This document shows, in pieces, positions 10,365 through 64,000 of a stretch of 64,000 bases of DNA. This DNA comes from an uncultured Spirochaetota bacterium (lineage in GTDB: Bacteria > Spirochaetota > Spirochaetia > SZUA-6 > CAVTHK01): positions 513,171-577,170 of the forward strand of contig CAVTHK010000013.1 of the NCBI GenBank assembly GCA_963734495.1, given 5' to 3'. A program made the translations under genes and the position numbers. The notes below the pieces were generated by a model, which saw nothing but the letters and a program-made list of their open reading frames with translations, was not told the DNA's origin and searched no databases. Within the stretch, counting starts at the first letter, position 1; each line of letters begins with the position of its first letter.

Positions 10365-12576
10365 TTGAAGCGCGACGTCCGCACCGCCTCGCTGGCGGCC
10401 GCAGCCGCGCTGGCTGCAGCCGGCGGCGTGCTCTGTCTCTCCTAGTCGCCCACTTGCGGAGCGGCGAGATGGACCTGGGGTTCCTGGCCGTGCCGGGGGC
10501 CTTGCTCTTCACGGCCTTCCAGTGGGCCGCGTTCTTCGTGCCGGCCTACCTGCTCGCGTGCGCCTGGATCGTCGGCGCGCGCTCCTTTGACGGCGGCGAG
10601 CTGCTCGCGCTGACGCTCACGGTGGTGCCGTTCCTCACGGCCGCCCTCGCGCTGAAGACGCTGTTCGAGGACGCCGACGCCGCGGCTCCCGTCACGCGGG
10701 TGACGCTGGCGCTCTTCGGCCGCTTTCCGGGGGTGCTGTTCCTCGGCGGGCTCATGACGCTGGAGCTGCTCGCGATCCACCGCGTGCGCGAGGCGCTGGC
10801 CTCCCGCGCGGGACGCCGTCCGCGGCCGCCCGGCCGCGCCCCGCTCCCGAGCCCGAAGCCGGCGACTACCAGGACGTGGAGCCGCTGGAGGAGGCGCCCG
10901 ACGCGCCGGCCGCCTCCGCGCCGGCGTCCGAGCCCCCGCCCCCTCCGCAGCGCCGCAGGACGGCATTCGTGCCGGCGAGCCTGCTGCCGCCCGACGCCGT
11001 GGTCGCCGAGGCGAGCGCCGCGCCCGTCTCCCCTGCCGAGGCGGTGGCCGAGCCCGTTCCCGAGCCGGTCCCCGAACTCGAGGCAGCCGCCCCCGCCGGC
11101 GAACCCGGCGCGGCCGCGACGCCCGCGCTCCCTCCCCCGCGCAAAGGCAAGCGCCCCGGGCACTACTCCGTGCCCATCAAGAACATCCTGGTCGAGCGGC
11201 CCCAGGCCGACGCGACCACGGTCGACAAGGAGATCCGCGACGCCGGCGCGATCCTGATGCGCACCCTCGAGGAGTTCAGCATCGCCGCCGAGCTCACCGG
11301 GATCCGCAAGGGCCCGGTCATCACGATGTTCGAGATCCTCCCGTCGCCCGGAGTCAAGCTCTCAAGGATCGTGAACCTGGCCGACAACATCGCCCTCCGC
11401 CTCGCGGCGCCGCGCGTGCGCATCGTGGCGCCCATACCCGGCAAGCACGCCGTCGGCATCGAGGTCCCGAACAAGCGGCGGTCCATCGTCTCGTTCCGCG
11501 ACATCATCTCCCTCGACCTGTTCCGCGACAGCCACTACGAGATCCCGCTGGCCATCGGCGAGGGCATCTCCGGGGAGGCGCACATCGTCGACCTGGTGCA
11601 GATGCCCCACCTGCTGATCGCCGGCGCCACCGGCAGCGGCAAGAGCGTGTGCGTCAACTCGATCATCGCCAGCATCCTCTACCGCAAGACCCCGAACGAG
11701 GTGAAGCTTCTCCTCATCGACCCCAAGATCGTGGAGCTCAAGCTCTACAACGACATCCCCCACCTGCTCACCCCGGTCATCACCGAGCCCAAGCGCGCCT
11801 ACCGGGCGCTTCAGTACTGCATCTACGAGATGGAGCGCCGCTACTCCCTGCTCGACGCCCTCGGGGTGCGGGACATCCGGTCGTGCAACCGAAAGATCAA
11901 GAAGAACCGGATCGCCCAGACGCCGCTTCCGTACATCGTCATCGTCGTCGACGAGTTCGCCGACCTCATGGCGACCATCGGCAGGGAGATGGAGTCGACG
12001 CTCGCGCGCCTGGCCGCCATGTCCCGGGCGGTCGGGATCCACCTCGTCCTCGCCACGCAGCGGCCTTCGGTCGACGTCATCACGGGCCTGATCAAGGCCA
12101 ACATCCCCTCGCGCATCGCCTTCATGGTCGCCAGCAAGATCGACTCGCGGATCATCATCGACACCGTCGGCGCGGACAAGCTCCTCGGGCAGGGCGACAT
12201 GCTTTTTACCCCCGCCTGGGACCCCGTGCCCGTGCGCATCCAGGGCGCCTATCTCGCCGAGGAGGAGATCGAGGCGCTCACCGCATACGTCAAGACGCTG
12301 GGCGAGCCGGAGTACATCGACGAAGCGATGTTCCTCGACGACGAGGAAGAGGACGTCCCGTTCGACGCGGCCGACGACCCGCTGATGGACAAGGCGCTGG
12401 AGATCGTCGTCACCGCGGGCAAGGCTTCGGCCTCCTACCTGCAGAGGCGCCTGCAGATCGGCTACAACCGCGCGGCCCGCCTCGTCGAGTCGATGGAGCA
12501 GCAGGGCATCGTCGGCCCCGCGCAGGGCAGCAAGCCGCGCGAGATCCTGCACGTGCCCGAGCGCTCGCGCGACTGA
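10365..12576 (+). CDS. ftsK: DNA translocase FtsK/SpoIIIE (N-terminal part frameshifted)
   Basis: Hydrophobic N-terminal segments, Pro/Ala linker, MPHLLIAGATGSGKSV, DEFADLM, LATQRPSVDVITG, gamma domain SYLQRRLQIGYNRAARL. Start TTG after AGGGAGGG is inferred. Confidence 0.92.
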
Positions 12577-12607
12577 CCGCCGCCCGGGGCGCGCGGACCT
12601 GCACGGA

Positions 12608-12661
12608 AACGCTTCGTGCAACGGCCCCCGGAACGTTCGCGAAACGGCCCCCCGATAGGCT
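12608..12661 (+). promoter_or_regulatory. Phased ACG-repeat promoter (site 1)
   Basis: AACG repeats with ACG at 12609, 12621, 12633, 12644, then 9 bp, then TAGGCT (12656-12661). Confidence 0.65.
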
Positions 12662-12682
12662 GGATCACGTCGGAGGCAGGCC

Positions 12683-13252
12683 GTGATCAAGGGCACCAAG
12701 GTTCATCTGCGGCTGATAGAGGAAGGCGACCTCGAGGTCCTGCATCGATTCCTGTGCGACGTCGGGAACCGGGGGCCGTATTTCCCCGGCACGATCCGCT
12801 CCCTGACCGAGCTCCGCGCGCGTTTCCTCCAGGACGGGTTCTGGTCCCCGAGGGAGGGGACCATGGTCATTGTCGACCAGGGCGGGCGCGTCGTCGGGTG
12901 GATCCTCTTCTTCATGCCTCATTCGGAGAACGACGCCTACGAGGCAGCCTACGTCATCTTCGACGAGCAGAGCAGGAACAAAGGCTACGCTACCGAGGCG
13001 CTGTCGCTCTTCGTCCGGTTCCTGTTCCGGACCACGGCCGCGCACAGGATCGAGCTGAACATCGCCACCGACAACGTCCCGTCGAGGCGGGTGGCCGAGA
13101 AGTGCGGCTTCGTGTGCGAGGGCGTCTCGCGGGAGGTGTGGTTCTCCAGCGCCCTCGGAAGGCGGCTCGACGGCGCACGGTACGCAATCCTCAGGAACGA
13201 AGTGGACTACTCATCCTGGGCCCTCCCGGGGCAGGGCGGTAGCGGCAGCTGA
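12683..13252 (+). CDS. GNAT acetyltransferase, RimJ/RimL-like
   Basis: KVHLRLIEEGDL...RNKGYATEAL...NVPSRRVAEKCGFVCEG. Confidence 0.9.
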   Translation: MIKGTKVHLRLIEEGDLEVLHRFLCDVGNRGPYFPGTIRSLTELRARFLQDGFWSPREGTMVIVDQGGRVVGWILFFMPHSENDAYEAAYVIFDEQSRNKGYATEALSLFVRFLFRTTAAHRIELNIATDNVPSRRVAEKCGFVCEGVSREVWFSSALGRRLDGARYAILRNEVDYSSWALPGQGGSGS

Positions 13253-13289
13253 GCGAACCCGCGCGCGTCCCGGGCAGCGGAGGCAACCC

Positions 13290-13381
13290 TCGTTTGACTC
13301 CCCAATGGACAATGGGCCTGCCACGACGTCTACCACATCGTGCAGATCAGGAACATGGGGTTGAGTAACCTGCCTCAGTGA
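13290..13381 (+). pseudogene. Remnant of the 3' end of a DinB-superfamily gene
   Basis: Reads CHDVYHIVQIRNMGLSNLPQ*, matching the HxxYHxxQI C-terminal motif of the DinB/YfiT family; no upstream coding part. Confidence 0.45.
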
Positions 13382-13403
13382 GGCGTTCGGGCCGCGGCCC
13401 GGG

Positions 13404-14567
13404 CTAATTCCCGTCGCCCGCCATCCTCGAGATACAGGCTCGATAATGCAGGTAGTTGGCCCAGCTCACGTCGGGCGGCACCTGGTGGTCCACCATCGGC
13501 ACGTAGCCGCCGCGCTCGAGCATGGCCGGCACCTGGCGCGCGAGCTCCGCGTCGATCGCATCGCGGCCCCGCGCGAGGGCCTTCTTGTCTATCCCTCCCA
13601 GAATCTGCAGGCGGGGGAAATCACGGCGGATCTGCACCACGTCCATCCCCGCCTGGGCCTCGAAGGGGTAGAGCCCGGTGACGCCGCCTTCCATCATCGG
13701 GCGGATCAGCTTGCGGCAATCGCCGTCCGTGTCCACGAGCACGACCTTGACGCCGTGACTGCGCGCGACCTCGGTGACGCGGCGGTAGGCGGGCAGGAGG
13801 AACTCACGGAACATCTCGGGGCTGATCAGCGGCCCGTTCTTGTACGACATGTCCTCCCAGATGTGGACGCAGTCGACCTTGACCCGGGACAGCACCCGGT
13901 CGTACAGCGCGACCCAGAGCGCGCCGAGCCGGTCGATGAGCGCGCGCACCAGCTCGGGCCTCTCGATGAACGCGACCATGAGCTCGACCTCGCCCATGAG
14001 AAAGCGCGGGGCGCCGAAGAACCCGCAGGGGTAGCCGCCAAAGGCCACGACCCCGTCGTAGGCGTTGAGCTCGGCGACCGCCGATTCCCAGTCGGGAGGG
14101 AAGCGGCCGGGCGCGTCGGGATCGAGCCGCTCGGCCGCGACGCGCTCGAGGTCCTCCATCGTCGAGACGGGCCACGACAGGTAGTGCGGGATGCTGTTGC
14201 GCGCCCTGGGCATGAGCTTCACGATGCCGGTGTCGTCGCGGATCACCACCTGGTCGCCGCGGTCCTCGAGGATCTTCTCCTCGAAGGGCGGCCAGAGGTA
14301 GAGCTGCACCGGGACGCGGAGCGTCGGCTTGTCCAGGCCGGACGCCTCGAGCGCGTCCAGGCAGAAGCGGTCGCCCGGCGCGATCGGCGTGGCGGGCCCG
14401 CGCACCGTATCGCCCCACGCGGGGTCGCCCTGGACGCCGTGGCGGCGCGGCATGCCTTCGGAGTACCAGCGCTCGATCGTGCCGCCCCAGAAGCCCTGCT
14501 CCCAGAACGGCACCCGGTCCGCCGGCTCGAAGCCCATCGCCGCATGAAAGCGCTCCTTGTCGGTCAT
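13404..14567 (-). CDS. Uroporphyrinogen decarboxylase (UroD/MtaA-CmuA) family protein
   Basis: MTDKERFHAAMGFEPADRVP...WEDMSYKNGPLISPEMFREF...DTDGD...GGIDK...GGYVPMVDHQVPPDVS; start after AAAGGGG. Confidence 0.88.
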   Translation of the reverse strand: MTDKERFHAAMGFEPADRVPFWEQGFWGGTIERWYSEGMPRRHGVQGDPAWGDTVRGPATPIAPGDRFCLDALEASGLDKPTLRVPVQLYLWPPFEEKILEDRGDQVVIRDDTGIVKLMPRARNSIPHYLSWPVSTMEDLERVAAERLDPDAPGRFPPDWESAVAELNAYDGVVAFGGYPCGFFGAPRFLMGEVELMVAFIERPELVRALIDRLGALWVALYDRVLSRVKVDCVHIWEDMSYKNGPLISPEMFREFLLPAYRRVTEVARSHGVKVVLVDTDGDCRKLIRPMMEGGVTGLYPFEAQAGMDVVQIRRDFPRLQILGGIDKKALARGRDAIDAELARQVPAMLERGGYVPMVDHQVPPDVSWANYLHYRACISRMAGDGN

Positions 14568-14757
14568 CGACGCCCCTTTCGCTGGTCCACGGGGCGATCT
14601 TGGCACGGCGGAGCGGGCCTCGGCAACACTGCGCGCGTTGACGTGGGGAACAGCTGAGGGTGCCTCCTCATTCAGAAAAACCGGAAATTCCGTCCCTTGC
14701 ATTCGGGTTTTCCGGAGGAACTGATGGCGGTGAGCCCTCACCCCCGGAAACAGGGGC

Positions 14758-17700
14758 TCAGGTGGGCTTCGGATGCGGCGCCCGGCCGCCTGAGGGGCGC
14801 CGCCGCGGCGACGCCGACGGGGAGCGACGCCGCGACGGCGCGGCGGCGCCTTCAGCGAGTGCGACGTCGACGGCCTCCTCGTACGACGTCTCGAGCCCGC
14901 GGTGCCACGCGTCGTCAGCCTGGTACTGCGCGAACGCCTCTTTCTCGTCCGGGTCGCAGTCGCTGCGCGTGCTCACGTCGCCGCCCACCGCGGCGTCGCG
15001 CAGCGCCTTGAAAGCGCCGAGCAGTCTCGCCGCGATCGCGTGCCTCCCCAGGGCGCGGGCGACCATGCCCAGCCTCCCGAGGACGTGGACCGCGCCGCCG
15101 CGGTCGCCGAGTCTCACGAAGAGCGAGAGGCTTTCGCGCAAGTGAGCCGCCCCGCGCTTCGTCTCGCCTCCCAGGAAGAGGGCGCGGCCCAGCCCTTCGA
15201 ACGTCCACGCAGTCATCCACCGGTCGCCGAGCTCCTGGAACGCCCGCAGCGCGCCCTCGTAGCGCGAGCAGGCCTCGGCGTGCTCGCCCGCCTCGCGCAG
15301 GAAGTCGCCGAGGCTATTGAGAGCATGCGCGGTACCCCAGAGGTCGCCGCACCGCTGCGAGATGCGCACCGCCTCCTCGAGCCCCTCCCGCGGGCTGCGG
15401 CCGACCGGCCTGCCGCCCGTGGTGCCGTAGGCCCAGATGAGCGAGGTCGCCAGGCGCGCCGGGCCGCCGATCTCGCGGGCGATGGCCACCGCCTCCTCGC
15501 AGAGCCGCGTGCCCTCGTCGTCGCTGCCGAGCCACCGCTCCGCCACGCCGAGGTCCGCGAGCAGCGCGGCCTCCACGCCGCGCGCGCCGAGCCTGCGCGC
15601 GAGCGCCAGGCCCTCGGCGTAGAGCGCGTGGGCCCGTGCCCAGTCGCCCTGAACAAAGACCAGCCAGCCCAGCGCGTCCAGCGCGCGGGCGCGCTCCTCG
15701 CCGAGCGAAGCGCTCTGCGGCAGCGCCAGGGCCTCCTCGAGCCAGCGCGCGCCCAGTTCGAAGTCGCCGCGCCTGTGGTGGAACCAGCGCAGCGCCACGG
15801 CCAGGCGCAGGGCTTCGGTCGCCTTCCCGCGGCGGAGGAGCCAGGACATCGCCCGGCCGCAGTTGTGCTCTTCCTGCACGAGGCGGGCGACCCAGCGCAT
15901 CTGCTCGGGGCCGTGGAGCTGCGGCTCGGCCTGCTCGACGAGGCTCAGGAAGAAGGCGGCGTGCCGGGCGCCGGCCGTCTCCGCCTCGCCGCCCGCCTCC
16001 AGGCGCTCGCGGGCGTACTCGAGGATCGTCTCGAGCATCCGCAACCGCGTCTCGCCGCCGGATTCGTCGCGGTGCAACAGGCTGTGGTCCGCGAGCGAGG
16101 AGAGCCCAGCGAGAACGTCGGCGTCCTCGGGGCCGCCGCGGCAGACCCGCTCGGCCGCGTCGACCGAGGCGCCGCCCGCGAACACGGCAAACCGCGCGAA
16201 CAGCTTCTTCTCACCGTCGTCGAGCAGGTCGTAGCTCCAGTCCAGCGTGCGGCGCAGCGTTTGCTGCCGCGCGGGCGCGCCGGGCAGCGGCCCGGCGGCG
16301 AGGTCCAGGCAGTCGGCGAGCCTTCGGGCGAGGTCCTGCGGCGTGAGGAGCCGCAGCCTCGGGGCCGCCAGCTCGATCGCCAGCGGAAGCCCGTCGAGCC
16401 GCGCGCAGATCTCGCCCAGGGCGGCCGCATTCTCCGCGGTCACGACAAAGTCCGGCCGCGCCGTGGCAGCGCGCTCGGCGAGCAGGCGCACGCTCTCGCA
16501 GCGGGTGACCTGCAGGGCGTCCGCCCCGGCGGCCGCCTGCTCCACGGAGAGCGGCGGCACCGGGAACTCCTTCGCGGCCGCAAGATGGAGGGACCGGCGG
16601 CTCGTGACGATCGCCCTCGCGTGAAGCGCAGAGGCGAGCAGCTGCTCGACCTGCGCGCTCGCGGCCGCCACGTGCTCGAAGTTGTCGAGGAGCAGCAGGA
16701 CCCTGCGCCGCCTCAGGTGATCCGCGAGCATGGCGTCCACCGGCCGCGCCGCGCCGACAGGCCGGCGGACCCCGAGGGCCGCGGCGATGGCCGGCACGAC
16801 TTCGGCCGGCTCGCGGAGGGGAGCCAGATCAATGAAGAAGGTACCCTCGCCGAATCTTCCCGCCGCCTCCCTGGCGGCCTCGACCGCGAGGCGCGTCTTG
16901 CCGGTGCCTCCGGGGCCCGTGAGCGTGAGGATCCGGGTGTCGCCGAGGGCGAGCAGCTCGCGCAGGTGCGCCAGCTCCTTCTCGCGGCCGACGAGCTGCG
17001 TCGCCGGCTCGGGCAGGTTGTTCGGCGGCGGCGGCGCGGCCGGGACGGGCGGCGTCGAGCGCGGCGAGGCGCGTGCCGGGGCGCGCGAGGGGACGCCTCG
17101 CGCGGGGGCCGCGCTCTGCAGGCCGGCGGCGAGCTCCGCGCCATGGGCGCCGCGGATCGCGTCGGCGAGGCGCTCCGTCTCGGCCGACGGCTCCTCGTTC
17201 AGCTCGCGCGCCAGGATCGATCGACACTGCTCGTACTGCCTGAGCGCCGCCGCCCGCCGCCCCGCCCTGCCGTAGAGCCGCATGAGGCTGCAGTGCACGC
17301 GCTCGTCGAGCGGGTCGAGGGCCAGCCAGCGGCGGGCATTCTCGATGGCGCGATCGAGCTGCCCCGAGCTGCCGCAGGCGTCGACGAGCCGCGCGAGGAC
17401 CTCTCCGTATTCGCGGCGGAGGCGCTCCTGCTCGAAGAACTGCCACTCTTCGAAGGGCGGGCTGTCCCTGAGGCGGAACTCCGAGAGAAAGTCGCCCCGG
17501 TACAGATCGGCGGCCCGGGCGAGCGCCTCGCCTGCGTGCGACGCCGCGTCCGGCGCTTGGCCGTCGCAGCGGGCCAGCCGCCGGAACTCGTGCACGTCAA
17601 CCAGGAGCCCGCGCCGCGGGCTGAGCGCCACGTCGGCGCGATCCGCGTTGAGCCACTCGTCGCCGACGAGGCCCTTGAGGAACGACAGCGTCTGGCGGAA

Positions 17701-17889
17701 GTCCGCCCGGGCGCGCTCCGCGGGCTGCTCGGGGAACAGCAGCGCCGTGAGCGCCTCCCGGCCGTGGGGCCGGGCCGTGACGGCGAGGTAGGCGAGGAGA
17801 GCCGCGACCTTCCGCCTCTGCAGGCGCAGCGGCGCGCCCTTCAGCTCGAAGCGCGGTGGTCCGAGGACGAGCACCGAGAGAGCCGGCAC
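14758..17889 (-). CDS. AfsR/SARP-like regulator (wHTH-BTAD-NB-ARC-TPR), copy 1
   Basis: LGPP..RRKVAALLAYLA, DLYRGDFL, DPLDERVHCSLMRLY (BTAD), GPGGTGKT, LLLLDNFEHV, LDGLPLAIELAA, TLDWSYDLL, C-terminal TPRs. GTG start at 17889 chosen by alignment to copy 2. Confidence 0.92.
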   Translation of the reverse strand: MPALSVLVLGPPRFELKGAPLRLQRRKVAALLAYLAVTARPHGREALTALLFPEQPAERARADFRQTLSFLKGLVGDEWLNADRADVALSPRRGLLVDVHEFRRLARCDGQAPDAASHAGEALARAADLYRGDFLSEFRLRDSPPFEEWQFFEQERLRREYGEVLARLVDACGSSGQLDRAIENARRWLALDPLDERVHCSLMRLYGRAGRRAAALRQYEQCRSILARELNEEPSAETERLADAIRGAHGAELAAGLQSAAPARGVPSRAPARASPRSTPPVPAAPPPPNNLPEPATQLVGREKELAHLRELLALGDTRILTLTGPGGTGKTRLAVEAAREAAGRFGEGTFFIDLAPLREPAEVVPAIAAALGVRRPVGAARPVDAMLADHLRRRRVLLLLDNFEHVAAASAQVEQLLASALHARAIVTSRRSLHLAAAKEFPVPPLSVEQAAAGADALQVTRCESVRLLAERAATARPDFVVTAENAAALGEICARLDGLPLAIELAAPRLRLLTPQDLARRLADCLDLAAGPLPGAPARQQTLRRTLDWSYDLLDDGEKKLFARFAVFAGGASVDAAERVCRGGPEDADVLAGLSSLADHSLLHRDESGGETRLRMLETILEYARERLEAGGEAETAGARHAAFFLSLVEQAEPQLHGPEQMRWVARLVQEEHNCGRAMSWLLRRGKATEALRLAVALRWFHHRRGDFELGARWLEEALALPQSASLGEERARALDALGWLVFVQGDWARAHALYAEGLALARRLGARGVEAALLADLGVAERWLGSDDEGTRLCEEAVAIAREIGGPARLATSLIWAYGTTGGRPVGRSPREGLEEAVRISQRCGDLWGTAHALNSLGDFLREAGEHAEACSRYEGALRAFQELGDRWMTAWTFEGLGRALFLGGETKRGAAHLRESLSLFVRLGDRGGAVHVLGRLGMVARALGRHAIAARLLGAFKALRDAAVGGDVSTRSDCDPDEKEAFAQYQADDAWHRGLETSYEEAVDVALAEGAAAPSRRRSPSASPRRRPSGGRAPHPKPT

Positions 17890-18027
17890 TTCTTGTCCCG
17901 AAGGCCGCGGCAGCGGCCTCGCCCCGTCGCGGCTGGCGACCGGGGGGTCGCGAGCGGCGGCGCCGCAGCCTTCTTCATTTACTCTATCCGACTTTCCCTC
18001 CGCGAAAAAGCGCAAAAACAGCTTTGT

Positions 18028-18081
18028 AACGCTGCGTGGAACGCCCGGAGGGACGATCCCGTCACGGTCGTCGCGTAGGCT
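18028..18081 (+). promoter_or_regulatory. Phased ACG-repeat promoter (site 2)
   Basis: ACG at 18029, 18041, 18053, 18064, then 9 bp, then TAGGCT (18076-18081). Confidence 0.65.
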
Positions 18082-18111
18082 GGGGCAAAGTCAGAGGACG
18101 AGGAGGAAGCA

Positions 18112-18591
18112 ATGAGAAGGCTCGTGCTCGTGTTGGGGCTCGCCACCGCGGCAGGGCTGCTGCTGTGCGGCTGCGCGACAGTCAAGGCGGCGGACGCGGA
18201 TGGTTTCAGGGCGGCAGCCGAGGAAATCTACGCGAAGTACGCGGGCTCGGTGACTTCCGGCGACCAGGACCGCTGGCTCACCAACTGGGACGAGAACGGC
18301 ATCCAGATGAGGCCGGACGGGCAGTCGGTCGTCGGCAAGAAGGCCATCGAGGAGCGCGTCCGCAGCCGGTGGCCGACGATGACGATGGCCATGACGATCA
18401 AGGTCGAAGAGGCGACGGCAGCAGGTGACTGGGGATATGCGAAGGGGACCTACGTACAGACGATCATGCCCAAGGCGGGAGGGCCGGTGACCAACGTGGA
18501 CGGCAAGTGGCTCGACATCCTCAAGCGCCAGCCTGACGGCACCTGGAAGCTGTACATAGACTGCTTCAATTCGAACGTGCCGCCGAAATAG
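18112..18591 (+). CDS. NTF2-like (DUF4440/SnoaL) lipoprotein
   Basis: [11 protein letters not shown]; lipobox LLCGC; AGDWGYAKG...GKWLDILKRQPDGTWKLYIDCFN. Confidence 0.85.
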   Translation: MRRLVLVLGLATAAGLLLCGCATVKAADADGFRAAAEEIYAKYAGSVTSGDQDRWLTNWDENGIQMRPDGQSVVGKKAIEERVRSRWPTMTMAMTIKVEEATAAGDWGYAKGTYVQTIMPKAGGPVTNVDGKWLDILKRQPDGTWKLYIDCFNSNVPPK

Positions 18592-18607
18592 GCGGGGGAG
18601 GAAGGAA

Positions 18608-19075
18608 ATGAAGAGGAGCGTCGTGCTTGTGTCTCTGCTTGCGTTTACGCTGATCGCGGCCGCGGCGGCGACGGCTCAGACGCGGATGATCGGACCCAGG
18701 GCGGACTGCGATGCGATCGCGAAGATCATGGAGGACTATGCGCTCGCCGGCACCCGCAGCGACCCGGAGCTGCGCCTTTCGCTCTGGGATCGCGAGGGGA
18801 TCGCGTACAAGGGGGACCTGAGCGTGTTCGACATGGCGGGGGTGGAGAAGAGGGTCCGCGCCGGCTTCGCAGCCACCACCATGAACATGTGGATCAAGAT
18901 CGAGGAGATCTTCGTGTCCGGCGACCTCGCCTACGCGCTCGGGCCGTACGGGAGCAGGCAGGGGCCCAAGGCCGGCGGCCCCATGATCGTCGTCGACGGC
19001 AGGTACCTGACGGTCCTCAGGCGGCAGCCCGACGGGTCCTGGAAGATCTACCGCGACTTTTCGGCCACCAAGTAG
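18608..19075 (+). CDS. Secreted NTF2-like (DUF4440/SnoaL) protein, paralog of the upstream gene
   Basis: Signal peptide; SGDLAYALG...GPKAGGP...DGRYLTVLRRQPDGSWKIYRD. Confidence 0.85.
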   Translation: MKRSVVLVSLLAFTLIAAAAATAQTRMIGPRADCDAIAKIMEDYALAGTRSDPELRLSLWDREGIAYKGDLSVFDMAGVEKRVRAGFAATTMNMWIKIEEIFVSGDLAYALGPYGSRQGPKAGGPMIVVDGRYLTVLRRQPDGSWKIYRDFSATK

Positions 19076-19096
19076 GAAAGCCCGGCACGCCGGGCA

Positions 19097-22000
19097 TCAG
19101 CGGGCGCGGGGCGGCCCGGCAGCAGGGCGGGGCCGCCTCGCTCCGCCGCCGGCGCCGCCGCGCAGGGCGTAGGCGATCGCGTTGTCGAGCGTCATCGTGA
19201 GCCCGCGGGCCCACTCGGCGGCGAAGCGGGCCCGGTAGCGGGCGGAGGCGGCCGCCGTCACGGCTCCGCCTCGGCGCGCGGCCTCGGGGCCGAGCGCCGC
19301 TTCGCCGAGGGCCGACGACGCCGCCATCAGGCGCGCGGCGCGCGCGTCGCGGCCGGCCCCGCGCGCGGCGAGCGCGAGCCGGCCGACCATGTAGACCGAG
19401 CTTGCCCGGTCGCCGAGGAGCGAGAAGAGGGAGAGCGCCTCCTTCATGTTCGCCTCGGCGCGCCGGAAGTCGCGGCCCCGGAGCGCCGCGGACCCCAGCC
19501 CTTCGAGCGTCCAGGCGACCATCCACGGGTCCTCGACCTCGCGGAACCCCGCGAGCGCCGCCTCATAGACGGGGCGCGCACCCCGGTGATCGCCTGTCTC
19601 GCGCAGGAGATCGCCGAGCCCGTTGAGCGCATGCGCCTCGCCCCACCTGAAGCCCGCCTCGCGCGAGATCCGCGCCGCCTCCTCGAGCTCGGCGCGCGGC
19701 GAGCGGCCTTCGAAGCGGCCTCCCGTGGTGGCGTACGCCGAGATGAGCGCGCGCGCGAGGCACACGGGATCGCCGACCTCCCGCGCGACCGCCACCGCCT
19801 GCTTGCCGTGCGCGGTGCCCGCGGTGCGCTCGCCGAGCCAGCGCTCGACGACTCCGAGGTAGGCCAGCGCCGACGCCTCGACGCTTCGCTGCGAGAGCTC
19901 GCGCGCCTCGGCGAGGCTCCGTTCGTAGAGGGCCCGCGCCCGGGTCCAGTCGCCCTGGACAAAGGCGATCCAGCCGAGAGCGTCGAGCGCCCGCGCGTGC
20001 GCGCGCGACGGAGCTGCCGGCTGCTCCAGCGACCGCTCGAGGATGCCGCGCCCTTCGCTGAACCGGCCGCCGCGATACCAGTACCACCTGAGCGCGGCCG
20101 CGAGTCTCAGCGCATCTTCTCCGCGCCCCGCTGCCAGGAACCGCTCCACCGCGGCCCGCAGGTTGGCGTTCTCGACCTCGAGGCGCGCGAGCCACACGGC
20201 ATGCTCGGGCCCGTCCAGCCCCGCCTCGCCGGTCTCGGCCAGGCGCAGGTAGTACGCGGCGTGCCGGTCGGCGACGGCCGCCGCTTCGCCGCTTTCCCGC
20301 AGCCGCAGGCGGGCATATTCCCCGATCGTCTCGAGCATTCGCAGGCGGCTTTCGCCCGATGCCTCCTCGCGCCGAAGGAGGTTCTTCTCGGCGAGGGAGA
20401 CGAGCCCCTCCAGGACGTCGGCGCCGCCCGCGTCGCCGCACACCTCTTCGGCGGCCCGCGGCGCGAAGCCGCCCGCGAACACGGCGAGACGGGCGAACAG
20501 CCGCTTCTCGCTCCCGTCGAGGAGGTCGTAGCTCCACTCGATGGCGCCGCGCAGCGTGCGCTGCCGCGCCGGCAGATCGGGGGGCCCCGCGCCGAGCAGC
20601 CGGAGGCGATCGGAAAGGCGGCTCGCCAGGTCCTGGGGCGAGAGGACCCGCAGCCGCGAAGCTGCCAGCTCGATCGCGAGGGGAAGGCCGTCGAGCCCGG
20701 CGCAGATCTCCTCCACCGCCGCCGCGTTGGAGTCGGTCAGCGTGAAGTCGGGCCTCGCCGTCACGGCCCGTTCCACCAGCAGCCGCACGGCCGCATAGCC
20801 GGCCAGGTGGTCCGCTGAGCGCGACGCCGCCGGATCGGGGACGCGCAGCGGGGGCACGGGGTACTCCCTCGCGTCCCGGATGTGCAGCGACTCGCGGCTG
20901 GTCACCAGCGCCTCGAGGCCGGGGCAGGCAGCCGCGAGCGCGGCGACCCGGCCGGCAGCCTCTGCCACGTGCTCGAAGTTGTCGAGCACCAGCAGCACCT
21001 TCCTGCGGCCGAGGGTCGCGGCCAGCAGGTCGAAGAGCGGCACGGCCTGGCCGCGCGATTCCCTCACGTCCAGCGTCGCGGCGATCGCGGGCACCACCTG
21101 GGCGGGCTCCTCGAGCGCGGACAGGTCGACGAAGAAGACGCCGTCGGGAAACCGGCCGGCGAGGTCCTCGGCCGCCTTCACCGCCAGCGCCGTCTTGCCC
21201 GTGCCGCCGGGGCCGGTCAGCGTCAGCACGCGCCCGTCCCCGCGGCCGATGAGGTCGAGGACCTCCGCGAGCTCCTTCTCCCTGCCCACGAGAGCCGCGG
21301 GCCCCGCGGGAAGGGTGGCGGGGCGCGGCGACGGCTCGCGCGCCGCCGCCGGCCGCGGCTCGCGCGCGGGCGCCGGCCCTCCGCCGGCCGCGCGACGCCG
21401 CTGGATCGCCTCGCGCAGCGCCTCGGTCCGCTCGTCAGGCTGCTCGCCGAGCTCCTTCGCGAGGACCGCGCGGCACACCTCGTACTGCCGAAGCGCCGCC
21501 GCTCTCTGTCCCGTGCCGCAGTAGAGGCGCATCAGGAGCCGGTGGGCCGCTTCGTCGATCGGGTCGAGGGCGAGCGCGCTGCGCGCGTACTCGACGGCGG
21601 CCTCAGGCCTCCCGCTCCCCTCCTGCAGGCGGACGAGCCGCTCGAGCACTGACGCGTACCGCTTGCGCAGCGTCTCCCGTTCGAAGAGCTGCCAGTCCTC
21701 GAAGGCCGGGCTGTCCCTGAGGAAGAAGCCTGAAAGAAGGTCACCGCGGTACAGCCGTGCCGCCTCCGTGAGCGCGGGCTCGTCGCCCGCGGCCAGCGTG
21801 CGGAAGCGCCGCACGTCGACGGCGAGCCCGCGCCGGTCCGGCAGGGCCACACCGCCGCGGTCGATCTCGAGCCAGCCCTCGCCGATGGCGCGCAGCAGGA
21901 ACGACAGCGTGTGGCGGAAGTCCGCGCCGGAACGCTCGCGCCCCAGCCCGGGGTAGAGCAGCTCCGCCAGCGCGTCGCGGTCGCGGGGCTCGCCGGTCAC

Positions 22001-22108
22001 GGCGAGGTATGCGAGCAGCGCGAGCACCTTGCGCCTCGGCATGCGGATCGAGGCGCCGTCCCGCTCGAACCTCGGCGGCCCGAGCAGCTGCAGCGAGAGC
22101 GTGGCCAC
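19097..22108 (-). CDS. AfsR/SARP-like regulator (wHTH-BTAD-NB-ARC-TPR), copy 2
   Basis: Same motifs as copy 1: RRKVLALLAYLA, DPIDEAAHRLLMRLY, GPGGTGKT, LVLDNFEHV, LDGLPLAIELAA, TPRs. Confidence 0.92.
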   Translation of the reverse strand: MATLSLQLLGPPRFERDGASIRMPRRKVLALLAYLAVTGEPRDRDALAELLYPGLGRERSGADFRHTLSFLLRAIGEGWLEIDRGGVALPDRRGLAVDVRRFRTLAAGDEPALTEAARLYRGDLLSGFFLRDSPAFEDWQLFERETLRKRYASVLERLVRLQEGSGRPEAAVEYARSALALDPIDEAAHRLLMRLYCGTGQRAAALRQYEVCRAVLAKELGEQPDERTEALREAIQRRRAAGGGPAPAREPRPAAAREPSPRPATLPAGPAALVGREKELAEVLDLIGRGDGRVLTLTGPGGTGKTALAVKAAEDLAGRFPDGVFFVDLSALEEPAQVVPAIAATLDVRESRGQAVPLFDLLAATLGRRKVLLVLDNFEHVAEAAGRVAALAAACPGLEALVTSRESLHIRDAREYPVPPLRVPDPAASRSADHLAGYAAVRLLVERAVTARPDFTLTDSNAAAVEEICAGLDGLPLAIELAASRLRVLSPQDLASRLSDRLRLLGAGPPDLPARQRTLRGAIEWSYDLLDGSEKRLFARLAVFAGGFAPRAAEEVCGDAGGADVLEGLVSLAEKNLLRREEASGESRLRMLETIGEYARLRLRESGEAAAVADRHAAYYLRLAETGEAGLDGPEHAVWLARLEVENANLRAAVERFLAAGRGEDALRLAAALRWYWYRGGRFSEGRGILERSLEQPAAPSRAHARALDALGWIAFVQGDWTRARALYERSLAEARELSQRSVEASALAYLGVVERWLGERTAGTAHGKQAVAVAREVGDPVCLARALISAYATTGGRFEGRSPRAELEEAARISREAGFRWGEAHALNGLGDLLRETGDHRGARPVYEAALAGFREVEDPWMVAWTLEGLGSAALRGRDFRRAEANMKEALSLFSLLGDRASSVYMVGRLALAARGAGRDARAARLMAASSALGEAALGPEAARRGGAVTAAASARYRARFAAEWARGLTMTLDNAIAYALRGGAGGGARRPRPAAGPPRAR

Positions 22109-22189
22109 GCGGCTCGCCTCCGGGCCGCCGCGCGGGGCCGGGGTGCGCGGCGGCGGCCTTCAATATGATGCCCCTTCATTCTACGCGAA

Positions 22190-22252
22190 AACGCGGTGAA
22201 ACGCATTCCGAAACGCGGCGGCAACGCCGGCGCAACGGCGGACGCCTATCCT
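22190..22252 (+). promoter_or_regulatory. Phased ACG-repeat promoter (site 3)
   Basis: AACG repeats with ACG at 22191, 22201, 22213, 22224, 22235, then 9 bp, then TATCCT (22247-22252). Confidence 0.65.
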
Positions 22253-22291
22253 TGGGTCGCCGGTGGGGACACCGGATGCGAGGAGGTGCAG

Positions 22292-23077
22292 ATGCGCGGC
22301 CAGGTTGTCGAGTTGCGCGTGAGCACCGTGCAAGGAGGCGCAGCGGCGGCGCCGCCGTCCACGAGGCGGCTCGGCGATGGGGCGCTGCTCGCGGCGAAGG
22401 TCGGGGTCCTCTGCTGCGGCGCGCTCGCGCTGCTCGCCGCCCACCTGAGCCCGCCGCTGGTGAGGCGCGTCCACAACCACGCGCGCGGCGTCTCTATGCG
22501 GCTTCCGGCGGGGTGGACCGGCTACGATCGGTTTGAGCAGGGCGTGGTGGCTTTCAAGCGCGACGGCCGATTCAATGCGTCGGTCACGGTGTGGCGTTTT
22601 TCGTGGTGTGAGTTCGACAGCGCCCGCGAGACGCCCGGAACGCCGGTCCCCGCACGTCAGCTGCCGACGGATCTCGTACAAGCCGCGGCCGAGGTGGCGG
22701 CTTGCCTGGGGTTCCCAGACGCAACGGGGAGGGCGCACATGGAAGGCGCCGTCGTCGGCGGGAGGCCTGCCCTGGTGCTTGTCGCGCCCCGCTACTCGAC
22801 CGAGCCATGGCGCGCGATCGCGGTGGCTGCCGGCGAAGACCTGCTCTTTCTCGACCTGCGTGCGGCGAGCGAGGCGGATCTCCGGGCGGTCTGGCGTTGT
22901 TGGAAAGCGATGATACGGTCGGTTCGGGTGACGAACCGGCCGCGGCCAATGGTCGAGCGTTTCGGCTGCGAAGACGGCTGCGGCCTTGAATATGTTGCTC
23001 CTTCATTCTACGCGAAAGTGCCGCGCAGCGCATTCCGAAACGCCTGCGGCAACGCTGGCGCAACGGCGGACGCCTAG
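22292..23077 (+). CDS. Hypothetical membrane-anchored protein, PsbP/Mog1p-like, paralog 1
   Basis: ATG after GAGGAGGT; RLGDGALLAAK + hydrophobic helix, MRLPAGW, GRPALVL, VAAGEDLLFL, SEADLRAVWRCWKAMIRSVRVT. Confidence 0.7.
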   Translation: MRGQVVELRVSTVQGGAAAAPPSTRRLGDGALLAAKVGVLCCGALALLAAHLSPPLVRRVHNHARGVSMRLPAGWTGYDRFEQGVVAFKRDGRFNASVTVWRFSWCEFDSARETPGTPVPARQLPTDLVQAAAEVAACLGFPDATGRAHMEGAVVGGRPALVLVAPRYSTEPWRAIAVAAGEDLLFLDLRAASEADLRAVWRCWKAMIRSVRVTNRPRPMVERFGCEDGCGLEYVAPSFYAKVPRSAFRNACGNAGATADA

Positions 23078-23080
23078 GCT
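23028..23080 (+). promoter_or_regulatory. Phased ACG-repeat promoter (site 4)
   Basis: GCG 23028, ACG 23040, 23052, 23063, then 9 bp, then TAGGCT (23075-23080). Confidence 0.65.
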
Positions 23081-23115
23081 TGGGTCGCCGGTGGGGACGC
23101 CGGAGGAGGCGCAGC

Positions 23116-23820
23116 GTGGGGCTCAAGGCGATGACAGTCGGACTGCAGGTCTGTTCCTTGCGCCTGCAACCGGAGGTGGAGCCGAAGCCGGGCACGAGCC
23201 GACTCGGTGACGGCGCCCTGCTGGCGGCCAAGGCGGCCGCGCTCACGGCCGCGGCGCTCGCGCTGCTCGCGTCATACCTGGGGCTCCCGCTGCCCCGCGT
23301 CCTGCGCAATCAGACCCTCGGCCTGTCCATCAGCTGCCCACCGGGGTGGGAAGACTGCCGGCTCCCCAAAGGATTGGCCATGGGAGCCTTCAAGAGCGAC
23401 GGCCGCCTGTCCGCGTGCGTGACGCTGTGGCGCTTTTCGTGGCCCGAGATAGGCGCCGTCGCGTTCGAGTCCGGAAGGAGTCTCTCCGCGCACGGAGTGC
23501 AGCCGGACCTTTTCGCCGCACTGAGCGAGCAAGCGGCCTGGCTGGGGTTCGGGGACTGCACGGGCCCGGTCGACACCATGACACTCGACGGCAGGCCGGC
23601 CCTCATGCTCACTGCGCAGGCGCCCTCCGGGAAGTCGCGGAGTGCGCTTGTGGTCGCGTTGGGCGAAGATCTCGTGTCGCTCCACCTCTTCGCGTCGAGC
23701 GAGGCTGATCTCCGCGCGGTGTGGCCGCTGTGGAAGTCGATGATCCGCTCGGTCCGTGTGACGCGACGGTCGCGGCCTTCCGCCAAGGGTTCCGACGACG
23801 GCAAGCGCGCAGGGTGGTGA
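23116..23820 (+). CDS. Hypothetical membrane-anchored protein, paralog 2
   Basis: GTG after GGAGGAGG; RLGDGALLAAK, SCPPGW, GRPALML, VALGEDLV, SEADLRAVWPLWKSMIRSVRVT. Confidence 0.72.
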   Translation: MGLKAMTVGLQVCSLRLQPEVEPKPGTSRLGDGALLAAKAAALTAAALALLASYLGLPLPRVLRNQTLGLSISCPPGWEDCRLPKGLAMGAFKSDGRLSACVTLWRFSWPEIGAVAFESGRSLSAHGVQPDLFAALSEQAAWLGFGDCTGPVDTMTLDGRPALMLTAQAPSGKSRSALVVALGEDLVSLHLFASSEADLRAVWPLWKSMIRSVRVTRRSRPSAKGSDDGKRAGW

Positions 23821-23869
23821 TCTTCCGGCGGTTTGACGGCCTTCTTCTTTCGTCTGTAGGTTTTCGGGC

Positions 23870-24763
23870 ATGACGGCACTCGGGCCCGCTGTGGAGCGCC
23901 GCCCGGACATGTCGGGGCGGGTGTGCCTCGTCACAGGAGGCACCTCCGGCGTCGGACGCGCGATGGCGGGCGGGCTCTCGAAGCTCGGCGCCCGCGTCGT
24001 CATCCTCGCGCGGGACCGGGAGCGCGGCCGCGCCGCCGCCGTGGAAATGACCGCGTCGTCCGGCCACGCGGTCGAGGTGGTCGTCGGCGACCTCGCGGAC
24101 CTGCGCTCCATCGGCCGCGCCGCCGCGGATTTCGGCGCGCGGTGGGACCGCCTCGACGTCCTCGCGCACGCCGCGGGCATCCTCTGCTGGAACCGGCAGA
24201 TGAGCGCCGACGGCTACGAGCTCACGTTCGCGGTCAACGTTCTCGGGCCGGCCCTCCTGACCCGGCTGATGCTGCCCCTGCTCGAGCGCAGCGCGCCCGC
24301 GCGGATCACCGCGGCGTGCGGCGGCCTGGCGACGCTCGCGCACGCCAGGCTCGATCTCGACGACCTCCCCTACCGCGCGGCGCGGTTCGCCCCGCTCTCG
24401 ACGGCGCTGCAGGCGATGCTCGCCCGCGTCCTCTACTGCGCGGAGCTCGCGCGGAAGCTCCAGGGACGCGGCATCGCGGTCAACGCGTTCTACCCGGGGC
24501 TCGTGCGCTCGCGGCTCGATCGCGGGCTGCCGTGGCCCCTGCGCGTCCCCGTGCGGCTCGTCCAGCCCTTTCTCAAGGCGGGCTCCGCTTCGGCGGTGCG
24601 AGCCGCCGCGGACCCCTCCCTCGCCGCCGTCACAGGCGCTTTCCTGGCGGGGCGGCGCGTGCTCGAGCTCCGCAGCCGCCGTGTGACGCCGGAGGATTCG
24701 CAGCGCCTCTGGTCGCTGATCGAGAGGCTGCTCGACGAGCGGATGACGCCCGGAACCGCGTGA
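23870..24763 (+). CDS. SDR-family (retinol dehydrogenase/WWOX-like) protein with a degenerate active site
   Basis: LVTGGTSGVG, DLADLRSI, DGYELTFAVNVLGPALLT, PGLVRS; no YxxxK motif. Confidence 0.85.
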   Translation: MTALGPAVERRPDMSGRVCLVTGGTSGVGRAMAGGLSKLGARVVILARDRERGRAAAVEMTASSGHAVEVVVGDLADLRSIGRAAADFGARWDRLDVLAHAAGILCWNRQMSADGYELTFAVNVLGPALLTRLMLPLLERSAPARITAACGGLATLAHARLDLDDLPYRAARFAPLSTALQAMLARVLYCAELARKLQGRGIAVNAFYPGLVRSRLDRGLPWPLRVPVRLVQPFLKAGSASAVRAAADPSLAAVTGAFLAGRRVLELRSRRVTPEDSQRLWSLIERLLDERMTPGTA

Positions 24764-24817
24764 AACGCTTTCTGTAACGTCTACGGACACGATCCCGGGA
24801 CGGCGCGCGCCTAACCT
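24764..24817 (+). promoter_or_regulatory. Phased ACG-repeat promoter (site 5)
   Basis: ACG at 24765, 24777, 24789, 24800, then 9 bp, then TAACCT (24812-24817). Confidence 0.65.
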
Positions 24818-24843
24818 GTCAGCGACAGTGCGAGGAGGCGTGT

Positions 24844-25536
24844 ATGCCGTTCGGACGAGGACTGGTCCCGGCTGCGGAAGCCTGCTCCCTGCGGCGGGAT
24901 GACCCGACGCCGCCCGCGCCACGCGCGGGGCGGCTCAGCGATGGCGCTCTGCTGGGCGCAAAGGCGGGCGCGTTGTGCCTCGCCTGCCTCGTGCTGCTGC
25001 CCGGGCAGCTCAACCCGGACCGGGCCGGCATCCTGTGCAGCCAGGAGGCAGGGCTCTCGATGCGGGTGCCGCGCGGATGGCACCGCTTCGCGCTGCCTCA
25101 CGCGCTGGCAGCCGTGAAACCCGACGGCGCCGGCGGCCCGCGCGCGTCCGTGCTGCTCTGGCGCCCGCCGTACGCCGAGCCAGGCGCTGCCGACGGCAGC
25201 GAGGACGCGGTGGTCTCCGCAGGGTGGCCGAGAGCCGATCCGGCGGCCACGCTGGCTGAGGCGGCTGACTGCCTCGGGCTGGACTGGTCCGGGCAGGCGC
25301 GGCTGGAGACCGACACCATCGCCGACAGGCCGGCCCTGGTGCTCGCCGCACCGCTCCGCGCCAGCCGGTGCTGGCGCGCCCTCGCTGTTGCCGCGGGCGA
25401 GGATCTGCTGTTTGTCGAGCTCGACGTGTCGAGCGAACAAGACCTTCGTGCTGTCTGGCGTCAGTGGAAAGCGATGCTCCGCTCTGTGCGGATCACGGGG
25501 TCCGACCGCCCGAGTGTGGCAGGGGGCGCCGACTGA
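24844..25536 (+). CDS. Hypothetical membrane-anchored protein, paralog 3
   Basis: ATG after GAGGAGG; RLSDGALLGAK, MRVPRGW, DRPALVL, VAAGEDLLFV, SEQDLRAVWRQWKAMLRSVRIT. Confidence 0.72.
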   Translation: MPFGRGLVPAAEACSLRRDDPTPPAPRAGRLSDGALLGAKAGALCLACLVLLPGQLNPDRAGILCSQEAGLSMRVPRGWHRFALPHALAAVKPDGAGGPRASVLLWRPPYAEPGAADGSEDAVVSAGWPRADPAATLAEAADCLGLDWSGQARLETDTIADRPALVLAAPLRASRCWRALAVAAGEDLLFVELDVSSEQDLRAVWRQWKAMLRSVRITGSDRPSVAGGAD

Positions 25537-25764
25537 CGACTCAGTCCGCCGCCATCGGTTTCCCGATGTGAGCGGACTTCCAGCCTTTGGAGGCGTGTCG
25601 CCTCTTCTTGACGCACCGTCATATCTCCGAAACGTGTTGGTGACGCCGGCTGACTACAGCTTGTCGGGACACTCAGGCAACGATTCGGGCCTGGGGCGAC
25701 ACGGAGCGTCGGGCTTCCACGCGCTCTTGCTTCTCGATCGTGGCCGAGGAACCCGGGATACCTC

Positions 25765-25798
25765 TTGCATCTGATACTGAACATATGTATAGTATCAG
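25765..25798 (+). promoter_or_regulatory. Leaderless promoter with a 28-bp palindrome / SOS-box-like operator
   Basis: TTGCAT (25765-25770), 17 bp, TATAGT (25788-25793), ATG at 25800. Palindrome CTGATACTGAACATATGTATAGTATCAG (25771-25798) contains GAAC-N4-GTAT. Confidence 0.7.
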
Positions 25799-25799
25799 T

Positions 25800-27065: not shown

Positions 27066-27117
27066 GCCGACCTGCCAGCGGCGCCGCACCGCTTGGCCGG
27101 AGCGAAAGAGCAGTGAC

Positions 27118-59960: not shown

Positions 59961-60020
59961 GGCGGGGGGCGGCGCGGCCGGTCGGGGCCGACCTGAGCCG
60001 CCGAGGCAAGGAGGAAGGGA

Positions 60021-63960: not shown

Positions 63961-64000
63961 AGCCAAGCTCCTTTCAGGGTCCGGCGGCATCGCAGCCGAG

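Follow-up and report, generated by a model that had tools for sequence, protein, structure and literature searches.

Phased ACG-core repeats before five genes of a probable spirochaete as predicted SARP-type operators beside two AfsR-like regulators

INTRODUCTION

The literature presents the regulators known as SARPs as actinomycete proteins that control antibiotic clusters (PMC8588249, PMC10972967), and two papers describe them as "only found in actinomycetes" (PMC8588249) or as actinomycete-specific (PMC9774167). [quoted passage not shown] In this report, we focus on a 64,000-nt stretch of DNA with 70% G+C, hereafter the window, in which two genes for AfsR-like large SARPs (Reg1 and Reg2) lie among five predicted operator/promoter sites (S1 to S5) made of phased direct repeats with an ACG core, in a host that is probably a spirochaete.

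The closest described system is AfsR from Streptomyces coelicolor, with its afs box at the afsS promoter (PDB 8k60, 8hvr; PMC10936776). AfsR has the same domain order as Reg1 and Reg2—SARP, NB-ARC/NOD, TPR—and a similar operator, in which direct repeats one helical turn apart cover the −35 position and the spacer and the −35 is weak or absent; presumably, the two systems also share sigma adaptation and the relief of auto-inhibition by ATP (PMC10936776). The inducer is not known for AfsR either (PMC10936776). The systems also differ in several respects. The AfsR repeat is CGTT(T/C)ATCGNN (PMC10972967) whereas that of the window is GNAACGS, with two repeats at 11 bp in AfsR and three to five at 12/12/11 here; residues T88 and R92, which contact bases in AfsR (PMC10936776), are not conserved in Reg1 and Reg2; AfsR targets afsS or phosphate genes, whereas the predicted targets here are envelope or exported proteins; the host here is a probable spirochaete; and no AfsK-like kinase gene was seen beside Reg1 or Reg2.

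The small SARPs (ActII-ORF4, DnrI, RedD) and the SARP-LAL PimR share with the window heptameric direct repeats, an 11-bp unit and a 3′ repeat 8 bp from the −10, up to three repeats being described (PMC10972967, PMC10936776). These regulators, however, sit in actinomycete antibiotic clusters, whereas no biosynthetic genes flank Reg1 and Reg2, which are large STAND-type proteins accompanied by arrays in which four repeats predominate. In the sense of the papers, where the name SARP goes with an actinomycete host and control of secondary metabolites, Reg1 and Reg2 stand apart, with their probable Spirochaetia host and no biosynthetic cluster genes seen around them. Two further systems are comparable in part. 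MalT from Escherichia coli carries a C-terminal, LuxR-type DNA-binding domain and recognises MalT boxes of a different layout, whereas the DNA-binding domain in Reg1 and Reg2 is N-terminal, of the OmpR type and joined to a BTAD domain. In the promoters of PhoB and OmpR, winged-helix protomers sit on direct repeats of ~11 bp, which stand in for the −35, much as predicted for the five sites, but these regulators are phosphorylated response regulators with receiver domains, and none is encoded beside the five sites. What MalT does share with Reg1 and Reg2 is an NB-ARC-type switch and a repeat sensor that control the DNA-binding domain, activation requiring the binding of ATP (PMC10936776).

RESULTS

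Five arrays of phased heptamers occupy the place of a −35 element

The five sites have a common layout (Table 1). Once their 20 repeats are aligned on ACG, which is present in 20/20 by construction, position −3 is G in 19/20, position −1 is A in 16/20 and position +1 is C or G in 16/20; from this conservation of the flanks we define the repeat unit as the heptamer GNAACG(C/G), with a period of 11–12 bp. The repeats are direct and all on one strand, as the SARP operator grammar demands, and they vary with rank—the proximal repeat reads ACGG in 5/5 sites and the distal repeat ACGC in 4/4—which hints at a defined, polar assembly. At every site, the 3′ heptamer ends 8 bp before the predicted −10, which corresponds to 9 nt between the last ACG and the hexamer. 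A search for sigma-70-like −35/−10 pairs within 12000–26000 gave 0 matches, and the second ACG coincides with the opening three bases of the −35 hexamer that a 17-nt spacer would require; if the −10 hexamer occupies −12 to −7, the expected positions of the ACG cores are about −24, −35, −47 and −59. A GGAGG-type ribosome site and a start codon follow 21–39 nt after each predicted −10. Judged by sequence and with predicted −10 elements, the five sites obey the published SARP promoter rule, combining direct heptamers, a period of ~11–12 bp, 8 bp to the −10 and an absent −35 overlapped by repeats.

The 106 bp that separate the stop codon of FtsK (12576) from that of the GNAT start (12683) contain S1, while the start of S5 falls inside the stop codon of the short-chain dehydrogenase (SDR) gene. 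S3 and S4 have ~125 bp of duplicated DNA in common, including the stretch towards Reg2, and therefore only four of the sites are independent; a tandem duplication copied the promoter along with the gene. S4 has three intact ACG because its two distal repeats mutated after the duplication, the fourth repeat position (23027–23029) now reading AGC. The open reading frame of paralog 1 runs through S4 and uses as its stop codon the TAG of the S4 −10 hexamer.

A preliminary description of this DNA had reported five phased ACG arrays of one layout, each with its last ACG ending 9 bp before a hexamer and with a repeat where a TTGACA-like −35 would be, two of them being divergent from BTAD-NB-ARC-TPR genes (S2 opposite Reg1, S3 opposite Reg2) and the third and fourth being duplicates. 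Our analysis agrees on each of these points, on the coordinates given for all five sites and on the ACG spacing in S1, S2, S3 and S5, the one correction being S4, to which the full set of repeats had been attributed.

Other signals in and around the sites were less informative. The leaders of S3 and S4 (22259–22276 and 23087–23104) have in common a 6-bp stem, CCGGTG...CACCGG or CGCCGG, just past the predicted start, and the evidence for a hairpin in these transcripts is unconvincing (fold z-scores of −2.0 and −0.9). Between the units, 7 intrinsic terminators were found where 5.5 are expected, none of them informative, and a search of the whole window found no known RNA family or tRNA overlapping the five sites.

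Table 1. Predicted operator/promoter sites and genes of the regulator region (positions in the window)
Feature	Position	Strand	Description
S1 operator/promoter	12606–12661	+	Four GNAACGS heptamers, ACG at 12609/12621/12633/12644 (12/12/11); −10 TAGGCT 12656–12661; predicted to drive GNAT
GNAT acetyltransferase, 189 aa	12683–13252	+	Acetyltransf_3 E 1.4e-22; predicted S1 target
URO-D/MtaA-like protein	13404–14741	−	URO-D E 1.6e-14; 17 bp downstream of Reg1, same strand
Reg1, AfsR-like large SARP, 1043 aa	14758–17889	−	wHTH (winged helix-turn-helix)-BTAD, NB-ARC, TPR; BTAD E 1.2e-24; NB-ARC 23.8 bits; AAA_22 E 6e-11; TPR_12 E 1.1e-19
S2 operator/promoter	18026–18081	+	Four heptamers, ACG at 18029/18041/18053/18064 (12/12/11); TAGGCT 18076–18081; divergent from Reg1; predicted to drive DUF4440 pair
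DUF4440/SnoaL-like exported protein, first	18112–18591	+	Lipoprotein-type signal
DUF4440/SnoaL-like exported protein, second	18608–19075	+	Signal peptide
Reg2, AfsR-like large SARP, 1003 aa	19097–22108	−	BTAD E 4.9e-21; NB-ARC 31.8 bits; AAA_22 E 1.2e-11; TPR_12 E 2.7e-14
S3 operator/promoter	22188–22252	+	Five heptamers, ACG at 22191/22201/22213/22224/22235 (10/12/11/11); TATCCT 22247–22252; divergent from Reg2; predicted to drive paralog 1
Paralog 1, 261 aa	22292–23077	+	Membrane-anchored PsbP/Mog1-fold protein (predicted)
S4 operator/promoter	23037–23080	+	Three intact heptamers, ACG at 23040/23052/23063 (12/11); TAGGCT 23075–23080; predicted to drive paralog 2 and SDR
Paralog 2	23116–23820	+	
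Short-chain dehydrogenase (SDR)	23870–24763	+	
S5 operator/promoter	24762–24817	+	Four heptamers, ACG at 24765/24777/24789/24800 (12/12/11); TAACCT 24812–24817; predicted to drive paralog 3
Paralog 3, 230 aa	24844–25536	+	Transmembrane helix, residues 33–55; PsbP/Mog1-like domain (predicted)

The sites are not a product of chance

In the comparison with shuffled DNA that the preliminary description had proposed, the pattern of three ACG (gaps of 8–9) followed by N9 and TANNNT had 5 matches, all on the + strand and all at the sites, and did not occur at all in 200 dinucleotide shuffles (0/200). A strict 16-base pattern had 3 matches in the window (shuffle mean 0.000), and the shorter ACG-N9-TANNNT was found, on both strands of the 64 kb, in these 5 places only. 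ACG-N9-TANNCT alone is not significant, with 5 observed, a shuffle mean of 1.7 and 5/200 shuffles that reach 5. These patterns were written after the sites had been seen, and therefore the unbiased checks are a leave-one-out scan and the test in other genomes described below. A 45-nt weight matrix built from three of the four independent sites placed the one left out first among 127,868 positions in 4/4 trials. With the matrix from all four, the five sites scored 40.8–49.6 bits and the next best place 12.3 bits, so that the scan singles out the five sites and shows no sixth in the window. The sites are real and non-random.

The same array lies beside relatives of the regulators in other phyla

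With the conserved N-terminal 240 residues of Reg1/Reg2 as query, we collected the best 80 of 142 confirmed relatives in species-representative genomes, the window's own genome not being among them, and examined, in the orientation leading away from the regulator, the 300 nt upstream of its gene. These 80 loci, with 33–52% identity in the DNA-binding domain, comprise 54 Chloroflexota, 14 Actinomycetota, 5 Acidobacteriota, 3 Spirochaetota, 2 labelled "delta proteobacterium" and 2 unclassified. The pattern ACG-8/9-ACG-N9-TANNNT points away from the regulator in 15/80 loci and is co-directional with it in 3/80, whereas the background of 5 matches per 2.16 million strand-nt predicts ~0.1 of 80 loci and 0/80 loci in the away-pointing orientation matched any of five controls in which the spacing or the triplet was changed. 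Some of these background matches resemble further real sites, for example a second promoter in locus L036 and one in L073. The distance from ACG to the −10 peaks at 9 nt (15 loci), 20 (12) and 31 (6), every other value from 0 to 40 being found in 0–3 loci; the spacing between repeats peaks at 11 (14 loci) and 22 (8); and ACG is the first of the 64 trinucleotides (15 loci, against 3 for the runner-up). Looser definitions find more sites, with 25/80 for a phased form (controls 2/80 and 0/80) and 30/80 for a relaxed −10 (controls 3/80 and 7/80), and the two lists together, as we count them, comprise 38/80 loci, with members in Chloroflexota, Actinomycetota, Acidobacteriota and Spirochaetota. There is, therefore, a cross-phylum link between this regulator clade and the operator.

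The closest array-bearing locus, L002, comes from a Spirochaetaceae metagenome-assembled genome (52% identity in the DNA-binding domain). Its 1020-aa regulator is divergent from a 159-aa DUF4440 lipoprotein with 42% identity (66/157) to the first DUF4440 protein of the window, and the intergenic region holds two GAAACG heptamers 11 bp apart, followed by 9 nt and TAGGCT. When the proteins of the predicted regulon (GNAT, URO-D-like, both DUF4440, the three paralogs and SDR) were compared with the 80 loci by tblastn, only DUF4440 (L002, and weakly L016) and weak SDR matches were found, from which we conclude that the operator grammar is conserved and the cargo is not.

The repeat sequence varies along with the regulator. 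By our reading of the table of loci, (G/T)(A/T)AACG heptamers accompany a recognition helix of the type L-R-(R/Q)-T in 10/10 cases (L002, L003 and eight Actinomycetota), and C(C)ACG(TT) heptamers accompany L-R-Y-x in another 10/10. Reg1 and Reg2, with helices F-R-H-T and F-R-Q-T and a GNAACG operator, group with the former. Such covariation is as would be expected if these proteins read these repeats.

Two groups of genes recur behind the arrays of relatives. In nine Actinomycetota loci (L008, L010, L012, L014, L034, L039, L043, L065 and L079), the divergent gene encodes a GAF-SpoIIE(PP2C)-HATPase_c_2 protein and is preceded by a conserved GTAACGC / GGAACGG heptamer pair; L012, L034 and L065 have matches to the ACG pattern also on the strand reading towards the regulator. 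Many loci of Chloroflexota and Acidobacteriota have, as the first gene behind the array, one for a protein of 73–89 aa that has a shared LLRLW...WRASLE-type motif and belongs to no Pfam or NCBIfam family (on the minus strand at L022:1883-2134, L035:9608-9829, L042:9422-9658, L045:9640-9876, L046:3596-3835, L061:1477-1728, L036:3261-3506, L071:9496-9738 and L073:9408-9677). This protein is a conserved small partner of the regulator clade.

Reg1 and Reg2 are AfsR-like large SARPs by sequence and modelled structure

Reg1 and Reg2 are 54% identical over their full length and have the same Walker A/P-loop motif, GPGGTGKT. Their domain matches (Table 1) include NB-ARC scores above the cut-off of 23.5 bits in both, while Pfam Trans_reg_C was not reported at E < 0.01 for either. 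For Reg1, the GTG at 17889 is the best choice of start codon; it makes the N terminus parallel to that of Reg2 and gives a 1043-aa form that is also in the protein database (P0158). The closest solved relative of Reg2 by sequence (phmmer) is AfsR (8k60), with E 1.4e-15 over residues 4–618. A model of Reg2 residues 1–240, built on 40 relatives, has a predicted local distance difference test score (pLDDT) of 97.4, and its top six matches in the PDB are all SARP domains of AfsR or EmbR (E 5e-12 to 2e-10, TM-score 0.70–0.75), the seventh match having E 1e-3. By every structural criterion, Reg1 and Reg2 are thus large SARPs; the domain matches, the Reg2 model and the alignment with AfsR bear out the earlier assignment of two BTAD-NB-ARC-TPR regulators of the AfsR kind.

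By eye, minus-strand hexamers resembling TAGAGT (17981–17986) and TAGAAT (22178–22183) could be the −10 elements of Reg1 and Reg2, respectively. The latter lies a few base pairs from the fifth S3 heptamer, which would allow autoregulation of Reg2. The URO-D/MtaA-like gene is, judging by its spacing, probably co-transcribed with Reg1, and this methyltransferase-like gene could be part of the sensing or the output logic.

The predicted targets are mostly envelope or exported proteins

The genes between 10.8 and 25.6 kb are, in order, FtsK (+), GNAT (+), URO-D/MtaA-like (−), Reg1 (−), the two DUF4440/SnoaL-like genes (+), Reg2 (−), paralog 1 (+), paralog 2 (+), SDR (+) and paralog 3 (+). The 49-bp gap between paralog 2 and SDR suggests that both probably belong to one S4 transcription unit. 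The GNAT protein falls below every resistance-enzyme threshold, with a weak similarity to AAC(6′) (35.6 bits against a cut-off of 250).

The three paralogs are, as modelled, single-pass membrane-anchored proteins with a PsbP/Mog1 fold. The model of paralog 3 (pLDDT 82.3) matches cyanobacterial PsbP (2xb3; E 1e-6, TM-score 0.44/0.62), and also Tsi3, LpqN and DcrB. The family is rare, with 34 proteins reaching E ≤ 1e-3 in an exhaustive profile search of 1.84 billion representatives, while a word-based search returned the query itself only and comparison with Pfam and NCBIfam gave no match; among the matches listed in a protein-atlas search were unnamed clusters and, at rank 21, one PsbP cluster. 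Of the target set named in the preliminary description, the exported DUF4440/SnoaL-like proteins and the acetyltransferase stand, the "unknown membrane proteins" become PsbP/Mog1-fold paralogs and the SDR is added through the S4 unit. That these genes serve an envelope-related response is a fair guess and no more, and the xenobiotic or envelope-stress physiology suggested earlier is likewise a guess.

DISCUSSION

Five predicted activator-dependent promoters

The most likely reading of these findings is that the five sites are activator-dependent SARP-type promoters, predicted to be bound by Reg1 and/or Reg2, and that their genes form a small local regulon. That SARP-type operators replace the −35 and are served by the adjacent regulators had been proposed in the preliminary description, and the proposal gains support from the family of the regulators, the SARP promoter rule, the arrays found across phyla and the regulator/DUF4440 pair in L002.

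Under this reading, three to five direct GNAACG(C/G) heptamers, set 11–12 bp apart and with the last one ending 8 bp before TANNCT, would together take the place of the −35 element. Family membership and comparative genomics suggest that the SARP domains of Reg1 and/or Reg2—an OmpR-type winged helix and BTAD—line up head-to-tail along one face of the DNA, one bound to each heptamer, and four phased sites suggest four protomers or two dimers. By analogy with the cryo-electron microscopy structures of AfsR, the two proximal protomers would fill the spacer and the −35 position and offer an alternative docking surface for sigma region 4 and the RNA polymerase core ("sigma adaptation"), and the distal heptamers would add cooperative protomers. 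NB-ARC and TPR would, by analogy with AfsR and MalT, auto-inhibit the protein until ATP, possibly with an inducer, releases it; the ligand activation proposed in the preliminary description draws on these two proteins only. The predicted output comprises GNAT, the two exported DUF4440/SnoaL-like proteins, the three membrane-anchored PsbP-fold paralogs and SDR. Either of the two regulators may bind a given site, and they may act separately, redundantly or in concert.

Several points weigh against this reading. The spacing of 12/12/11 is slightly above the canonical 11, and there are four or five repeats where characterised SARPs have two or three (PMC10972967). In the phmmer alignment, the base-contacting T88 and R92 of AfsR align to H/Q and F in Reg1 and Reg2, so that base recognition in AfsR is not transferable to them and a different DNA word is to be expected. 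Among the relatives, 42/80 fall outside the pattern definitions, one of these loci (L053) having a masked upstream region, and apart from the DUF4440 protein of L002 and the weak match in L016, ~7 kb from its regulator, no regulon protein recurs beside them. The covariation between helix and heptamer may represent one evolutionary event because it tracks two clades that are not phylogenetically independent, and L062 and L066, which belong to that sample, are near-duplicates. Our scan covers 64 kb of a 577-kb contig, and the rest of the genome may hold further members of the regulon or have the motif at a higher frequency. Transcription starts, binding and activation are all inferred. Finally, single-base spacings are at some risk because the assembly has many fragmented genes, although the agreement of three independent sites on 12/12/11 speaks against an error of this kind.

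Alternative explanations

That the arrays are copied DNA or a by-product of GC-rich composition, with no function, is scarcely credible. S3 and S4 are indeed duplicates, and the shortest motif on its own is not significant, but S1, S2 and S5 lack flanking similarity beyond the motif positions, and we rejected chance on the evidence of the shuffles (0/200), the leave-one-out trials (4/4) and the arrays beside relatives in other genomes. Recognition by a sigma factor of the extracytoplasmic function (ECF) type, with the AAC of a repeat serving as −35 and the repetition being incidental, is very improbable. ECF −35 elements typically contain AAC, and GGAAC is present in S1 and S2. A promoter of this class is defined, however, by a single AAC-containing −35, a CGT-type −10, a fixed spacer and a cognate sigma gene, and we rejected it for the five sites, which have three to five phased copies and a TANNCT element 9 nt past the last ACG, with no sigma-factor gene seen in 12–26 kb; relatives with CCACGTT, and hence no AAC, keep the phasing. 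An operator for a different protein with a winged helix, for instance a response regulator of the OmpR/PhoB type whose gene lies elsewhere, with the STAND genes as mere neighbours, deserves more weight and is still unlikely. Architecture alone does not identify the binder, Pho-box-type promoters have a similar layout, with direct repeats spaced by a helical turn where the −35 would be, and a response-regulator gene is found at 63142–63990. The SARP DNA-binding domain is itself of the OmpR type (PMC10936776). Yet no response-regulator gene lies within 12–26 kb, the array accompanies the regulator clade across four phyla, directly upstream of its genes, and the flank of the heptamer co-varies with the recognition helix of these regulators.

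It also seems improbable that Reg1 and Reg2 bind the arrays but mainly repress or autoregulate, or that one is active and the other a decayed paralog. The fifth S3 heptamer (22188–22194) lies close to the possible Reg2 −10, the array is co-directional with the regulator in some relatives (3/80), and nothing separates Reg1 from Reg2. All five arrays, however, are at the −35 position of promoters with no −35, which is an activator layout, and the BTAD proteins characterised so far are activators (PMC10936776, PMC10972967); as for decay, both proteins are full-length with an intact Walker A motif.

A shared operator grammar and a candidate recognition code

A broader proposal, which we put forward tentatively and hold to be a little short of an even chance, is that one AfsR-like STAND clade extends over Spirochaetota, Chloroflexota, Acidobacteriota and Actinomycetota with a shared operator grammar (ACG-core heptamers, 11–12 bp apart, the last one 8 bp from the −10) and a readable code in which R-(R/Q/H)-T would correspond to GNAACG and R-Y-x to CCACGTT. 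Proteins of the SARP family outside actinomycetes are already present in annotation, for example in Salinispira pacifica and in many entries from JGI named [quoted passage not shown], and we found no paper on SARP-type operators outside actinomycetes in the open-access library that we searched. Our results extend a known mechanism and do not describe a new one; their value lies in the cross-phylum operator grammar and in a testable recognition code.

SARP operators have so far been defined promoter by promoter, whereas in this case the sequence by itself suffices to read the operator of an uncharacterised clade, with five predicted target promoters and a predicted heptamer for one regulator clade and the same grammar beside relatives in three other phyla. 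This provides testable regulator–operator pairs for organisms known only as metagenome-assembled genomes, a candidate recognition code for the SARP winged helix and, for the thousands of "predicted ATPase/SARP family" proteins known from metagenomes (at least 7445 at E ≤ 1e-50 among 8000 scored), a means of regulon prediction. If the broader proposal is true, sigma adaptation would be an old, phylum-spanning way to run promoters without a −35, dependent neither on actinobacterial polymerase accessories nor on antibiotic clusters, and the spirochaete studied here would use an array of four protomers to switch on a group of envelope proteins.

Host and gene content of the window

The host had been described as apparently not an actinomycete; we find that it is very probably not one and is probably a member of the Spirochaetia, as judged from the homologs of a fused NuoCD protein and the named relatives of Reg2. 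Among the 120 NuoCD matches listed, seven carry an organism name, with a Rectinemataceae entry and three Spirochaetia entries at the top (69–71% identity) and one Gammaproteobacteria and two Phycisphaerae entries lower down (67–69%). The named relatives of Reg2 include a Spirochaetales bacterium (50%) and S. pacifica (44%; labelled "AfsR/SARP family" in the source).

In NuoCD itself (40260–42026), NuoC and NuoD are fused into a single 588-aa protein (NCBIfam NuoC/D equivalog, 983 bits). Several other housekeeping genes between 38000 and 62000 are present as fragments, including nuoG, nuoL, nuoM and nuoN, valS in two pieces and only the C terminus of ribulokinase (araB); examples are 45616–46518, 49007–50647, 51268–52926, 53419–53745, 58015–58806 with 59050–60033, and 61356–61727. 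Either a frameshift-rich assembly or decaying genes would account for this. A 931-aa open reading frame on the minus strand (25461–28256) has an oxidoreductase-like start and continues as low-complexity sequence.

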